The position numbers and the translations under genes were made by a program. Positions 29,589-34,560 of a stretch of 64,000 nucleotides of DNA are shown here, one piece after another. Below the pieces are notes generated by a model. It saw nothing but the letters and a program-made list of their open reading frames with translations, did not search any database and was not told where the DNA came from. Each line of letters opens with the position of its first letter. Positions within the stretch are counted from its first letter, which is position 1. The stretch comes from Carpediemonas membranifera BICM (taxonomy: Eukaryota; Protista; Fornicata): positions 124,001 through 188,000 of the forward strand of contig JAHDYR010000013.1 of assembly GCA_019828565.1 (NCBI GenBank), written 5' to 3'.

Positions 29589-29600
29589 GACAGTGATCAC

Positions 29601-29653
29601 TGTGGTATGGATAGAACAGCTAGCGAAAGAGGTTTAATCAATTGATTGGGACA
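29601..29653 (-). repeat. 5' LTR of element 2 (53 bp)
   Basis: Exact direct repeat of 25128-25180. Confidence 0.97.
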
Positions 29654-29658
29654 GGATT

Positions 29659-29863
29659 GATGTTTCAGCTCGGTGCCCTTGAGCGTGATATAGGGCACGT
29701 TGGGTCTATATATGGTGTGTATAACCTTCTCGCCAGCGCCAGTGAGGTGTCCTCTCAGGGGCGTGGGTTTCTTCTTCGTTTGGGCTTGCGTCTGAATTGC
29801 ATCGCCCCAAGCGGCCCATTTTGCGATATCCGCAGTGTCGGGCGGCTCAATAGTCTTGTCCAT
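29659..29863 (-). pseudogene. Element 1 gag N-terminus (MDKTIEPP...), separated from the rest by element 2
   Basis: Removing 25128-29658 rejoins ...ELKHQS|GPQKFLQRLG... in frame with ORF 24655..24993. Confidence 0.88.
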
Positions 29864-29888
29864 GTGTTCTTGATGCTGTAGAAGCTTC

Positions 29889-29915
29889 TGTGGCACTGTG
29901 TGAACTAAAAGACAG
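29889..29915 (-). repeat. Left piece of the split 5' LTR of element 1
   Basis: Matches 20767-20793 and ends in the GACAG TSD of element 3. Confidence 0.93.
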
Positions 29916-30007
29916 TGTGCTATTGAAGGGTCAAACAATGTGTTTACTGAGGAGGTTTAGACCCGTGGTGGTGTAAATGGTCCAAACTAGGGGATTTGAA
30001 TGCATCA
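29916..30007 (-). repeat. 3' LTR of element 3 (92 bp)
   Basis: Exact direct repeat of 34469-34560; TG...CA. Confidence 0.97.
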
Positions 30008-30033
30008 CTACCCCCCCTCCTTCAATGCGATGT

Positions 30034-33000
30034 CTAATCCTGCCGAGTGCCATTTGATTGGCGGGCCGACATTCTGAGCTTCAAATCATCAAACCGCTTC
30101 ATGGCTTCCTCTAGGGGTGTATTCACCTGCAGGTACTGCTGAAGTATCGCATTGCCTCTCATATCCTCGTCTGTTGGGTTTCTCCACGTGTCGTCTGCTG
30201 GTTCGTATCCTAACCAGCGCACCTTCACCTCTGGCGTCTTCATCACGTCCTTCTTGATCCTGTGCGTGACGATCTCTTTGATATACGTGTGCATACGGTC
30301 CTTGGCGCATTCTGCCTTCGCCTTCTCCTCATCCCAGTCGCCTTCTGCGAGCTTCAGATGCTTCACGTGCTTCTTATACGTCTTGTTCGTCTCGGGGTCC
30401 CTTATCACGAACGAGCTGGCGTTTCCAGGTGCCTTCTTGACCACCTGAAGTGGGCCTCTCCATCGTAGCTGGTACTTCCCTCTCTGTTCTGCATCCCTGT
30501 CGACCATGACCCACGCCTTGGCTGTGATACGGGTCGGTGTCCTCTTGTTGTGCTTGTCCTGTCTGGCCTTGGCCGCGTCGTACGTCTTCTTCGCCGCGTC
30601 CCTGCGCTGTTGAGCTCTCATCTTCTCGTTCCGGACCATCTTGTCAATGACGTCCGTAACGTCGGCTCTCTCCTGGTTCGACAGTGTCATCTTCCCTTCC
30701 CGCTCTGTGGACACCACTAGCTTCCAGGGTGACGTGCCTGTCGTGGCAGATCTAGCCTGGTTGATGATGTTCTGAACCGCTGGCAGTAGGCCCATCCATT
30801 GCTTCGTGCCGCGCTGATGCATCTCGTCCCTGAGGTGGCGGTTCACTTCGCGATTCCTGCGCTCAACGATCCCATTCTCCTCGTGATGGTACGGGGTGGT
30901 CGTCTTCGCGCCCCCGCCTAGCTCTGCCGCGAACGACTTGAACTCCTTCGAGTCGAACTGCCGTCCGCTATCGGTCACCCACTCGACCGGGGGCGGGAAG
31001 TGTGTGAGGTATCTTTCCCTGATTGCTCTGATGGTGGCGGCGGAGGTCACCGTCTTCAGTGGGCACAGGGTGACCCACCTCGTCGACTCCTCCACCAGCA
31101 CCAGGATGTACCGGTAACCCTGGTCTGCCTCTGCCATGTTGATGGTGTCGGCGAACACGCGACTGAACGGCGACGCTGGCATGCGCAGCTGCTCCTGATA
31201 TTGCTCGCGTGACCGGTGTTCGGCGTTCTTCTGGCACACGGGGCACTCCTTAACCATCCTCTGGACGTCCGTGTCCGCAGTGTCCCAGCGCAATCCCTTA
31301 TCCTCGAGCTTCCACAGCGTCTGGTCAACCCCGTGGTGACCGGTGCCAGGTCCGTGAACGGACTTGAAGCGTGGCAGCTTCTGGGACTCGGGTATGGCCG
31401 GGAACGTGCCCTCCTCTTCGGGCTCGGCGTCAAGGGTGTCGCCCTCGTCTGTCCCGGCTGCTTCCTCGGTGTCGCTTTCGTCTGCCTCGTCGCGCTCGCG
31501 GTCAGGCTGTCCTGCCGCCTCTTCGCGGAACCGAACTCTCGGCTCGTCGGCGGCGACTTCTTCCGACTCTTCCTCCGCTGCGTCGACTGCACACATCACG
31601 GACACGATCGCACCCTGCTGCTCTGGTGTCAGGCTCTCGGCTTCTGCGCGGGGCATTCTGGACAGGCCGTCCGCGACCGTATTAGACTTACCAGGCACGT
31701 GGGTGATGCTGAACTTGAGGTTGCCCAGCTCAAGTGCCCAGCGCTGCACCATGGGGTCGACGTTGCCCCACGTGTACACGAGGTTACGGTGGTCCGTGAA
31801 CATCTCAAACTCCCTTGTGGCTAGGAACCGTCTCATCTTCCTCGTGGCCGCTATGATGGCGAATGCCTCCTTGCGGTAGGTGCTCCACTTGCGCTGGCTT
31901 GCTGTCAGGGCCTTGGAGAAGAACATCACAGGTCGCTTCGACCCGTCGTCCTCGACTCTGACCAGCACTGCGCCGACACCGGTGTCGGACGCGTCGGTGA
32001 ACAGCTGTAGGCGGTCGTCAGGGCCCGGTGTGACCAACAGTGTGGGGGAGGTGACGATCTTCTTCAGTCTCTTGAACGCCTCTCTCTGGGGGTCGCCCCA
32101 CACGAACGTCTGGCCCTTGATCTCCAGCTTGCGGATCGGCTCGGTGATGTCCGCGTAGCCGGGGATGAACTGGGAGAAGAAGTTGAAGATGCCCAATGTG
32201 GACCTGACGTCACTCACGTTTGTCGGGTCGGGCAGCTCCTGGACACCCTGGACGCGCCATGGGGGATGCGCTTTCCCTCCGCCGACACTATCCATCCGAG
32301 GTACTCCACCTCCGTCAACCCGAAAAAGCACTTGTTCTTGTTGAGCTTCAGCTTCTTCTCTCGCACCCGGTCCATCACCCGCATCAGGTTCGCCTGGTAC
32401 TCTTCCCAGGTCGACCCATAGACGATGATGTCGTCCACGTACACAAGACACGCCGTGCCCAGCATGTCCGCGAAAGCCTCCTCTAAGGCCTCTTGCATAT
32501 GGCCAGCCGCGGTGGCAAGGCCGAACGGCATCGTAGTGTAGGTATAGTGCCCCTTGGAGTACGTGAACGCCAGGTACTCCTGTGTGTCGGGGTGCACCGG
32601 GACCTGATGGAAGGCCTTGCTGAGGTCAAGTGCTGCGAAGTACTTGTTGCCCCTCAGCCTCTCGATCAGCTCTTCCGTCGACGGCAAGTCGTGCTGAGTC
32701 ATGGACGCCAGGAGCTCGTTCAGTGGCGAGTAGTCCATGCACGGCCGCCACGTCCCGGCCTTCTTCCGCACCATGACCACTGAGCTGCTCCAGGGAGACT
32801 TGGTTGGGATGATGATCCCGCTTTCCTCCAGCTTCTGCATCTCTGACCGGAGTTCATCCTCCACCTGTCTTGGGAACCTTCGGGGCAGACGGAAGTAGGG
32901 TCGGGCGTCCTTCTTCAGCGTGACCTTGAACGGCTTAAGGTCTGCTGGTTCGCCTGCATCGCCGAAGCAGTCGCTGTATCTCTCGGCCCAGTCCTCTGTG

Positions 33001-34455
33001 AGCTTGGAGATGACCTGGATGGGGTCTGCTTCGGTGTCAAGGTTGCGGTTGATTAGGCCGAGGGAGTCAATCACCTCCATGTTGATGAGGAACGACTCGG
33101 CCTTGTCCATCGCATACCAGGTCGGCGTCGCGGTGACCTCTCTGTCGAGGTGGAGGGTGATCGGCACATCTGACAACACTCGGTAGACCCTCCTCATCGA
33201 CTCGTCAGCCAAGCGGACTGTCTCGCCCCGCGTGGCGATCTTCAGTCCCTTCTCGACGGCCCAGTCCCTCGGCACGACGCTGAACGAGGAGCAGGTGTCC
33301 ATGCGGACGATCAACTCTTCGCCCAGCAGACTGGCCTTCTCCTGCCAGATAGTCTTGGACGCTAACATAAAACAGAAAGGATACTCAGATGGCTTTACAA
33401 CTGTGCACTGGTGCGACTTGTGGCCGAACTCGCCGCACCTGAAGCACTTCGGCTCCTCGTGTGGGCAGTCGGCCGAGTCGTGACCCTTTTCGCCGCAGTT
33501 GAAGCAGCCGCGGCCCCCTTGCCGCCGCTCAGGCTTGGCCCCCTCGGCCGCGCCGTCATTGCGTCTGCGCTCTCCCGTCCTCGCTGGCATCTTCCGCTCC
33601 TCTCTCGGCTTGCTCTGCAGTGACTCGAGCTGCTTCTGTAGGGCCGCGAGCCGGCTGCTCGGCACCAGGTCAAACTCTCGCATGGCATCTGTTCGGGCCC
33701 GTAGGTACTTTGCTATGACCTTCAACGACTTCGCGACTGTTGACTTGGAAAGAACAACAGAGCGAAGAGACGATGCGATCGTCTCGTCATCGAGGCTCGC
33801 CAGAACGATCTCCTGGAGCTCTCTAGCATCCAGGGATCCGACCTTCTCGAACAGATCTACCATATCCGTGAACACATGGCGGTAACGGGTGAAAGAGGTC
33901 TCACGGAGCTTGCGAAGCTCGCGGTACGCGCGCTGAAGACTGATATTGGTTAGTGTGGCCTCAGCCATCACCACCCAGCGCTCATCGCGCTTCCTCCCTC
34001 GTTGTCTTCGCCTCCTTCTTCTCTTGGTCTTGAGCCATGATGTACCGGAGCAAAGCGTCGTCCCGGGCGGTCGTCTTGCCGCTTGTCTTCTTCTTCCGGG
34101 CCGGGTTAGCGATGAGTGTGCTCCGGGCGTCATCCTCGGAGTCGCTCTGGGCGTGCGCGTCTTCGCCGCCCCTGCTGCTGTCGCTACCCTCGTTGGCGCT
34201 GAACATCTCCTCGTCGTCTTCACTCGAGCTGCCAGAGCTGTCATCGGAGCTTTCGTCGTCCTCCAGAGCTTGGTATGCGTCCTTGATACTTGTTCTCACT
34301 TTCGCGTCGATGCACTCGAAGAGGGTCTTCGGCTTGACCTCATCTTCAGCATAGAGTGCGTAGCTCATGCGGAACCTCACCCAGTCGGCTGCAGTGTGCC
34401 GGAGATACTTCGGGTAAGTCCCTTTTGGGTCGTCGTCATCGTCATCCTTCTTCAT
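30034..34455 (-). CDS. Element 3 gag-pol with frame switches near 33990 and 32260
   Basis: ORFs 33982..34455, 32214..34244 (two CCHC knuckles, protease MDTCS, RT YVDD) and 30034..32451 (RNase H TDASD, IN HHCC + TDSG..ERRN, WRGP, chromodomain VKVRWLGYEPADDTW). Confidence 0.88.
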
Positions 34456-34468
34456 GCGTAGTAATTAC

Positions 34469-34560
34469 TGTGCTATTGAAGGGTCAAACAATGTGTTTAC
34501 TGAGGAGGTTTAGACCCGTGGTGGTGTAAATGGTCCAAACTAGGGGATTTGAATGCATCA
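34469..34560 (-). repeat. 5' LTR of element 3 (92 bp)
   Basis: Exact direct repeat of 29916-30007. Confidence 0.97.

Follow-up and report, generated by a model that had tools for sequence, protein, structure and literature searches.

A palindrome at the first base past the 5′ LTR as a candidate replacement for the tRNA primer-binding site in a Ty3/Gypsy lineage

Three nested Ty3/Gypsy LTR retrotransposons (E1, E2, and E3), all on the minus strand, lie in the window analysed here, a stretch of 64,000 nucleotides from Carpediemonas membranifera (contig JAHDYR010000013.1, positions 124,001 to 188,000), and each carries a perfect palindrome that begins at the first base past its 5′ LTR (LTR+1). 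We propose a model, to which we give about an even chance, wherein this palindrome replaces the tRNA primer-binding site (PBS): it would pair two co-packaged genomic RNAs, one of which would be cut at the 3′ edge of the palindrome or close to it and would then serve the other as primer for minus-strand synthesis. E2 is inserted within the gag region of E1, and E3 splits the 5′ LTR of E1. The LTR ends of all three elements were set without use of the palindromes, from identical LTR pairs and 5-bp target-site duplications (TSDs). The features are listed below in window coordinates.

20762-20766 and 34589-34593: E1 TSD, CCGGC
20767..20816, minus strand: E1 3′ LTR, 50 nt, TG..CA, with a purine tract directly upstream on the element strand
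20841..24803, minus strand: E1 gag 3′ part and pol (RT, RNase H, integrase), three overlapping frames
25123-25127 and 29654-29658: E2 TSD, GGATT
25128..25180, minus strand: E2 3′ LTR, 53 nt, identical to the E2 5′ LTR
25165..29588, minus strand: E2 gag, protease-like region, RT, RNase H, and integrase, three frames, ATG at 29588
29590..29603, minus strand: E2 palindrome, 14 nt, with an 8-nt core at LTR+1..+8 and 3 bp more into the LTR end
29601..29653, minus strand: E2 5′ LTR, same sequence as the E2 3′ LTR
29654..29863, minus strand: E1 gag 5′ part, open for 70 codons, interrupted by E2
29880..29889, minus strand: E1 palindrome, 10 nt (terminal A of the LTR, 8-nt core, T)
29889..29915, minus strand: E1 5′ LTR, U5-side part, cut off from the U3-side part by the E3 insertion
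29911-29915 and 34561-34565: E3 TSD, GACAG
29916..30007, minus strand: E3 3′ LTR, 92 nt, identical to the E3 5′ LTR
30034..34455, minus strand: E3 gag (two zinc knuckles), RT, RNase H, integrase, and a weak chromodomain match, ATG at 34455
33749..34534, plus strand: inferred antisense transcript over E3 gag, palindrome, and U5 (contigs X4 and X5; one sample only)
34460..34469, minus strand: E3 palindrome, 10 nt (terminal A of the LTR, 8-nt core, T)
34469..34560, minus strand: E3 5′ LTR, same sequence as the E3 3′ LTR
34566..34588, minus strand: E1 5′ LTR, U3-side part

The Pfam domain order in E1-E3 (RVT_1, RT_RNaseH, Integrase_H2C2, rve) is that of Ty3/Gypsy and not of Ty1/Copia, in which integrase precedes RT. 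TG..CA LTRs, target-site duplication, and a purine tract before the 3′ LTR, all criteria for Ty3/Gypsy, were likewise found. Catalytic motifs of RT and RNase H are present in all three elements, and pairwise pol identity among the three is about 30-35%. A protease was inferred in E2 only, by BLAST to relatives. A chromodomain at the C-terminus of integrase would mark a chromovirus; the Pfam Chromo match in E3 scores 25.0 bits against a cut-off of 25.1, with no match in E1 or E2, and PF00385 is carried by several close relatives. Contigs from sequencing runs show the joint from 25122 to 29654 that marks the E2 insertion point, and the E3 body has frame breaks in the window at places where these contigs differ.

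On the element strand, the junctions read CA/GAAGCTTC/T in E1, ACA/GTGATCAC/TGT in E2, and CA/GTAATTAC/T in E3. A sequence-only reading of the window had placed the palindromes at 29880-29889, 29590-29603, and 34460-34469, and all three lie there. As that reading also described, a perfect 8-nt core starts at the first base past each 5′ LTR and is closed by an A-T pair, and the gag ATG follows 25, 12, and 13 nt past the LTR in E1, E2, and E3, respectively. None of the three 3′ LTRs of these elements has a palindrome after it. Five palindrome-side elements have an LTR end fixed by a second LTR copy (E1-E3, L086, and L098), and in all five the palindrome starts at +1 of the 5′ LTR, where the cDNA end is defined, with none following the 3′ LTR. 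For a chance baseline, CA occurs 8847 times in the window, both strands counted; an 8-, 10-, or 12-nt palindrome follows 52 of these sites, and an 8-nt core plus T follows 10, with the three elements included in both counts. The probability of three hits in three by chance is about 2e-7 to 1e-9, which is a post hoc figure.

The usual priming sites were searched for at these junctions. The absence of a TGG-type PBS, claimed earlier for E1-E3, extends to the wider set: TGG occurs at +1..+7 in none of 32 palindrome elements and is present in control L092. Nor was there a complement of the Tf1 type, again in agreement with the earlier claim, as the longest in the whole LTRs of E1-E3 measure 3, 4, and 4 nt; among 29 relatives, some with only a partial LTR, the complement is at most 7 nt (criterion about 9-11 nt). 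A polypyrimidine tract of the Skipper type is absent from the E1-E3 leaders. Rfam yielded no match (E up to 1) over positions 20000-35500, and no tRNA gene was found in the window. ARAGORN likewise reported none in 41 loci, on which ground a self-encoded tRNA primer was dropped.

Among metagenome relatives, a palindrome follows CA (once TA) in 29 of 34 upstream windows, versus 4.7 expected. A perfect core is present in 29 of 32 palindrome-side windows of relatives, and those of L083, L095, and L099 gave no match within 200 nt. The 32 elements carry 25 different perfect cores, 8, 10, or 12 nt in length; most core positions vary among two to four pair types, and several different cores occur within one contig set (L071, L098, L118, L125, L131). 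The core is followed by T in 30 of the 32, which was not a search requirement (binomial p <=2e-10, ignoring relatedness). With so many cores of three lengths, it is therefore the symmetry itself that is kept, which upholds the earlier proposal of selection on structure. Other particulars of that proposal hold for E1-E3 but not generally: 10 nt is the commonest core length (21 of the 32 elements), with 8 nt in only 9, G is the first base of the core in 24, and leaders of 12-25 nt in E1-E3 compare with 13-177 nt in relatives.

This variety bears on two other readings. A host tRNA half or internal fragment might be the primer, with the symmetry incidental, and Copia lineages offer a precedent for half-tRNA primers (PMC6317226). 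However, a tRNA primer would fix a sequence and not a symmetry, whereas three different cores in one window, and 25 across hosts, are all perfectly symmetric; we consider this reading extremely improbable. Alternatively, the palindrome might work as DNA, either as the site for a dimeric protein (integrase or a transcription factor) or as an aid to plus-strand transfer. This would suit a perfect dyad adjoining the integrase attachment end, and also cores whose first two bases are often GT, but a protein site should hold its sequence, even within one contig set, and priming would be left unexplained. We judge a DNA role to be highly improbable.

One pair of close relatives indicates how a core might change. 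L085 and L142 share 87-90% identity and have nearly the same flanks, yet none of the 10 ungapped positions of their cores agrees; the difference amounts to a shift of 2 nt plus replacement of the 3′ half. The two palindromes are thus wholly different, as if one half had been rewritten from the other. The comparably close L112 and L134 share one core, with no closing T after it. Note that the argument for rewriting is based on the single pair L085/L142.

In a tree of RT-RNase H sequences built with FastTree only, the branch that includes the named Ty3/Gypsy proteins from plants, fungi, and fish contains none of the palindrome-bearing rows (SH-like 96 and 97), unlike what would be expected of chromoviruses. 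On the host side, a proteasome subunit shares only 53-58% identity with its best named relatives. Viral-contig scans provided no usable relatives. Three of them found none, and the other gave 66 loci, of which 62 matched the RT-RNase H region only; the seven of these put in a tree grouped together and are presumably caulimovirus-like. The remaining 4 were contigs of unrelated gypsy elements that offered no usable pair of LTRs.

Every one of the 32 cores is symmetric through its centre, with the central four bases self-complementary in 10 different tetramers. Because such self-complementarity is needless in a hairpin loop, pairing between two RNAs fits better than fold-back. Of the two forms of tRNA-independent priming proposed earlier, the first is therefore favoured and the second is not. 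Fold-back in cis, wherein the palindrome forms a small hairpin in a single RNA that is cut and primes itself, is in our estimate very unlikely. In monomer folds of E1-E3 this site is indeed predicted to form a stem of 3-5 bp under a 4-nt loop, and GalEa sites have been described as hairpins (PMC5445492), but loop bases would be free to vary, perfect cores predominate in the palindrome-side windows, and the predicted hairpins are weak. Across the 32 elements, hairpin energies are 0 to -4.6 kcal/mol versus -7 to -23 kcal/mol for the predicted self-duplex, and in E1-E3 dimer formation is predicted to gain 12-17 kcal/mol relative to two monomers; any palindrome yields a favourable self-duplex, and these energies thus give no independent support.

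A U5-leader stem predicted in E1-E3 has the palindrome at its tip and beats shuffled sequences (z -2.4 to -2.8). Only 5 of the 32 elements overall have a stem that does so (Wilcoxon p 0.25), and as a general feature it is unsupported across relatives. Together with the central symmetry, this predicted hairpin-tip position would suit a kissing-type dimer equally well, which favours a reading of the palindrome as a dimerisation or packaging signal only, like a retroviral dimer initiation site, with a protein or an unrelated RNA as the primer. The comparison with such signals was raised by Donnart et al. (PMC5445492). Short 5′-leader palindromes able to join two genomic RNAs are indeed known from retroviruses, including PBS-overlapping palindromes in HIV-2 and MMTV (PMC8096270). 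Those sites, however, come in addition to a tRNA PBS (PMC5445492, PMC8096270), whereas here the palindrome stands in its place and no other priming site is visible. Moreover, a signal that only dimerises RNA has no need to begin right at LTR+1, yet this start is seen in elements that are 30% identical. We regard a dimer signal alone as unlikely.

The five available sequencing runs consist entirely of assembled contigs, which cannot show RNA or cDNA ends. Several contigs cross the E3 palindrome unbroken. The bodies of E1 and E2 are nearly uncovered, which says nothing on their expression. Loose contig ends past the U5 end common to E3 and a sister family are non-palindromic where readable; among these, 3′ flanks and 5′ leaders are indistinguishable, and several are merged. 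The contigs that define the antisense transcript have a 5′ adapter-like end (X4 and X5) and an A-rich 3′ tail (X4). Since this putative RNA (33749-34534) covers the E3 palindrome, and since LTRs of 50-92 nt are very short, the primer might instead be a separate molecule, either a short R-U5-palindrome transcript or an antisense RNA fragment, that anneals with no cut of the packaged genome. An antisense primer would have no need of a palindrome, however, and the contigs include none that ends at the palindrome, although short RNAs are lost from such assemblies. We consider a separate primer quite unlikely.

The preferred model of priming between two packaged RNAs would proceed in four steps. 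The palindrome would nucleate an antiparallel RNA-RNA duplex between the two genomes, and the RNase H of the element would then cut one strand, with the cut predicted at the palindrome's 3′ edge or close by. The resulting 5′ fragment (R-U5-palindrome) would remain annealed, and its 3′ OH would be extended into the U5 of the partner. Finally, plus-strand strong-stop DNA would copy the primer back, such that the site would be rewritten in each cycle and both halves of the palindrome would therefore change together. Particles of LTR elements package an RNA dimer, and the RNase H of Tf1 cleaves an RNA duplex to make the self-primer of that element (PMC7175516). Counting against the model, the palindromes within the PBS of MMTV are dispensable for dimerisation (PMC8096270).

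The cleavage step is borrowed from the Tf1/sushi self-priming group (Tf1, Tcn1, TAR), in which priming is likewise tRNA-independent and the primer is cut from the RNA of the element by RNase H acting on an RNA duplex (PMC7175516, PMC6317226). In contrast to the elements described here, with their short complements, Tf1 pairs the first 11 nt of its transcript with a non-palindromic PBS in cis (PMC7175516, PMC6317226). Likewise protist Ty3/Gypsy elements, the Skipper chromoviruses of dictyostelids lack both a TGG and an LTR complement, and a new way of priming has been suggested for them. They differ in having a polypyrimidine tract (a degenerate pyrimidine run) instead of a PBS and no described palindrome; the string 'palindrom' is absent from the main text of that report (PMC5006619).

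The closest likeness is to the fungal GalEa elements of Ty1/Copia, whose Conserved Hairpin Site CHSeq1 was described by Donnart et al. in 2017, with the mechanism given as unknown (PMC5445492). GalEa elements have no PBS, and directly past the 5′ LTR they carry a 9-nt sequence that is palindromic with the last A of the LTR. The same register is found in E1-E3, and the closing T in 30 of 32 elements. Two inner hexamers (TGATCA and TAATTA) are the same as those of E2 and E3; in addition, a U5 complement was not found in GalEa, and a larger LTR-leader hairpin is predicted in some of its elements (PMC5445492). GalEa differs in being Copia where E1-E3 are Gypsy, in near-uniform sites (CTGATCAGT or CTAATTAGT in 85% of families, against 25 cores here), and in having C..G cores of 8 nt only, against G..C and three lengths in the present elements (PMC5445492). 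A downstream partner, CHSeq2, inverse-complementary with one mismatch, is reported for 39 of 44 GalEa families (PMC5445492), whereas the best CHSeq2-like partner in E1-E3 has 3-4 mismatches and a one-mismatch partner occurs in only 1 of the 32 elements (L088).

The sequence-only reading implied that a palindromic PBS substitute was new, which claims too much given that the same register is published for GalEa (PMC5445492). Our literature search found no report of such a palindrome in Gypsy elements. 'Ronin', a possible Repbase name for elements primed by a palindrome, did not appear in the literature searched and is not adopted here. We put at somewhat short of an even chance the broader proposal that priming by a sacrificed member of the RNA dimer, via a self-rewriting palindrome, is a third mode in LTR retroelements beside tRNA priming and the cis self-priming of Tf1, in use across a large, unnamed lineage of Ty3/Gypsy and arrived at separately by the fungal GalEa Copia elements.

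How reverse transcription starts in LTR elements that have no tRNA site is solved only for Tf1, and GalEa and Skipper are stated open cases (PMC5445492, PMC5006619). The 25 cores, three lengths, closing A-T pair, and central symmetry make the GalEa puzzle sharply testable, and E1-E3, with LTRs of 50-92 nt and leaders of 12-25 nt, are unusually small experimental substrates. Should the model hold, priming would have a chemical requirement for the RNA dimer, these elements would be independent of host tRNA, and annotation tools based on the PBS would miss a whole lineage.

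Three Ty3/Gypsy LTR retrotransposons (E1, E2, and E3) reside on the minus strand of the window, with E2 and E3 nested in E1.

LTR retrotransposons of the window
E1, minus strand: LTRs of 50 nt; target duplication CCGGC
E2, minus strand, inside the E1 gag: identical LTRs of 53 nt; target duplication GGATT
E3, minus strand, inside the E1 5′ LTR: identical LTRs of 92 nt; target duplication GACAG

The nesting of E2 in E1 was confirmed because contigs from two sequencing runs join position 25122 to 29654, which yields the E1 gag without E2. In all three elements, the encoded RT, RNase H, and integrase follow the Gypsy order, and catalytic motifs are present in RT and RNase H; the pol proteins share just ~30–35% identity over RT–RNase H. 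Two of the frame breaks of E3, where contigs of the sequencing runs have indels, are likely to be assembly errors or copy-specific. Positions 20767–34588 hold three very divergent, triply nested elements with identical LTR pairs and one insertion within a 50-nt LTR, as if they had been active recently and perhaps target other elements.

The window itself is gene-dense eukaryotic DNA (GC ~57%) with long, uninterrupted ORFs, and its genes include those for a radial spoke protein, a proteasome alpha subunit, and eRF1. Named relatives of the proteasome subunit reach only 53–58% identity, which indicates that the host is a divergent flagellated protist. Also present are a 425-nt inverted repeat (43659–44083 and 50438–50862; 99% complementary, 6.3 kb apart) and a MAC/perforin domain in the minus-strand ORF at 51576–53555. 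A short repeat at 20669–20731, which has TG..CA ends, flanks that differ widely among run contigs, and a poly(A) tail in one variant, may be a solo LTR or a MITE that belongs to a different family.

The sequence-only reading had proposed tRNA-independent priming from a palindrome that replaces the primer-binding site (PBS), and the features it described were borne out. An 8-nt perfect palindrome (core) abuts the 5′ LTR of each element, beginning at the first base after the LTR (LTR+1), and the T that follows pairs with the last A of the LTR; in E2, the symmetry reaches 3 bp into the LTR. No palindrome follows any of the three 3′ LTRs inspected, and an 8–12-nt palindrome follows just 52 of the 8847 CA sites in the window. 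A TGG-initiated PBS is indeed missing, given that TGG is absent from +1 to +7 in E1–E3, and there is no Tf1-type complementarity: over the whole LTR, no more than 3, 4, and 4 nt, respectively, are complementary to the start of the leader.

A search with the E2 pol protein gave 188 matches, the nearest of which are unnamed single-ORF gag-pol proteins on contigs of 4–7 kb. Metagenome contigs were scanned with a pattern for the RNase H motif common to the closest E2 pol relatives, which recovered 122 stretches (121 loci, designated by L-numbers) from 43 of the 64 parts of the metagenome collection, with flanks for 80 rows. We kept 34 upstream windows that showed a gag start together with DNA upstream of it, leaving out short loci, those without a 5′ end, and near-duplicates (L106, L120, L128, and L141). 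Gag start codons were picked by eye, four of them (L082, L087, L091, and L131) after the sequence was viewed. An 8–12-nt palindrome following CA (TA in L137) lies at most 200 nt from the ATG in 29 of the 34 windows, versus 4.7 expected from Markov resampling.

The other five windows have no palindrome within 200 nt of the ATG. Two of these (L092 and L132) group with the named elements of plants, fungi, and fish; in L092, a TGG-type site follows an LTR boundary set by paired LTRs. The remaining three (L083, L095, and L099), whose LTR end could not be located, fall on the side of the tree outside this named branch (the palindrome side), and L083 and L095 have candidate palindromes farther upstream. 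Among the relatives, the LTR end is independently fixed only in L086 and L098; in both, the palindrome starts at +1 of the 5′ LTR and is missing after the 3′ LTR. For the others, the LTR end was defined as the CA preceding the palindrome, which is ambiguous in L070, L076, L078, and L114. Between the pol stop and 3′ LTR of L125 is a stretch that looks tRNA-like by eye and is not called by ARAGORN.

An RT–RNase H FastTree of 80 rows placed all palindrome-bearing rows outside the branch that contains the named proteins from plants, fungi, fish, oyster, and microsporidia (support 96). In a second FastTree of 67 rows, wherein 23 duplicate or unlabelled rows were omitted and seven caulimovirus-like outgroups added, these outgroups fall on the same side as the named proteins (support 97). 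The FastTree placements, in which deep branches are weak and several are long, are consistent with the palindrome-bearing elements forming one separate lineage.

Symmetry is kept while the letters change. There are 25 distinct cores in 32 elements (E1–E3 plus 29 relatives), although such counts cover related elements and are therefore not independent events. Cores are 8 nt (n = 9), 10 nt (n = 21), or 12 nt (n = 2) long, and every position of the 10-nt set shows two to four Watson–Crick pair types. A T, which was not part of the search criterion, directly follows the core in 30 of the 32 elements. Ten versions of the central tetramer occur, each self-complementary; if these four bases were an unconstrained hairpin loop, symmetry would be expected in ~1 of 16 cases. 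Because the search demanded perfect palindromes, this central symmetry counts only through the match rate (29 of 32 palindrome-side windows). L085 and L142, which are 87–90% identical with near-identical flanks, carry the cores AACGTACGTT and TTAACGTTAA, respectively, wherein a 2-nt shift gives a new 5′ half, the complement of which replaces the 3′ half. A single compensated pair distinguishes the cores of L091 and L137, and the core is identical in L112 and L134.

Full symmetry with changing letters points, from sequence comparison, to pairing between two identical molecules. Such pairing is also what a pure dimerisation role for the palindrome, the main rival explanation, would entail; that the palindrome invariably begins at LTR+1 points to a priming role, since the cDNA end is set by the primer site. 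In the trans-priming route that we infer, two packaged genomic RNAs would anneal at the palindrome, RNase H would cut one of them near the 3′ edge of the core, and the 5′ fragment would prime on the partner RNA. Plus-strand synthesis would then copy the primer back, such that the palindrome site would be rewritten. The putative cleavage step is borrowed from Tf1, for which the available portions of PMC7175516 describe RNase H cutting of an RNA duplex. A U5-leader stem with the palindrome at its tip is predicted in E1–E3, where it scores better than shuffled sequences (z −2.4 to −2.8) and would extend the dimer duplex; such a stem outscores shuffles in just 5 of the 32 elements. Several run contigs cross the E3 palindrome, and contigs cannot show RNA ends.

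At 33749, contigs of two runs (X4 and X5) start with the same adapter-like end that is seen at the 5′ end of each of two neighbouring host genes. The contig from X4 finishes in an A-rich tail within the E3 5′ LTR. Positions 33749–34534 (plus strand) likely represent, in one sample, an antisense RNA over gag, palindrome, and U5 of E3. The transcript of a CDP-alcohol phosphatidyltransferase gene appears to start inside the end of the E1 5′ LTR (34586, within its last three bases; adapter-like loose end, X4), and thus the E1 insertion would abut or supply the start of this gene. Loose ends at 34467–34500 reveal a sister family of E3, present at several insertion sites, that has the last ~30 nt of the E3 LTR and a different upstream part with its own purine tract, which implies an LTR of only ~40 nt.

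Our literature search found one direct precedent, the fungal GalEa Copia elements, whose 9-nt site is palindromic with the last A of the LTR. According to the available portions of that paper (PMC5445492), these elements lack a PBS and a U5 complement, and its authors state that no model fits. GalEa differs in that its site has essentially two sequences, compared with 25 cores here, and in that a downstream partner is present in 39 of 44 families (PMC5445492 supplementary table). It is mostly families of low GC content that have the AT-richer form (same table), which may reflect repeat-induced mutation; with two such sequences, covariation is barely visible in GalEa. Papers on Skipper, plant LTR lineages, and choanoflagellate, Capsaspora, and microsporidian elements, as well as one preprint, do not contain the string "palindrom" in their main text. 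Among sources seen in excerpt, a paper on bivalve TRIMs refers to palindromes and to GalEa, and a review states that Cryptococcus Tcn2-5 may use novel priming. No Gypsy precedent was found in the openly searchable literature; one may exist in the Tcn2-5 source, Repbase, or subscription journals.

The palindrome at LTR+1 is a real feature that is under selection and widespread within an unnamed Ty3/Gypsy lineage, and its site type is, on the GalEa text available, already published for a Copia lineage. The priming mechanism of palindrome elements is now testable.
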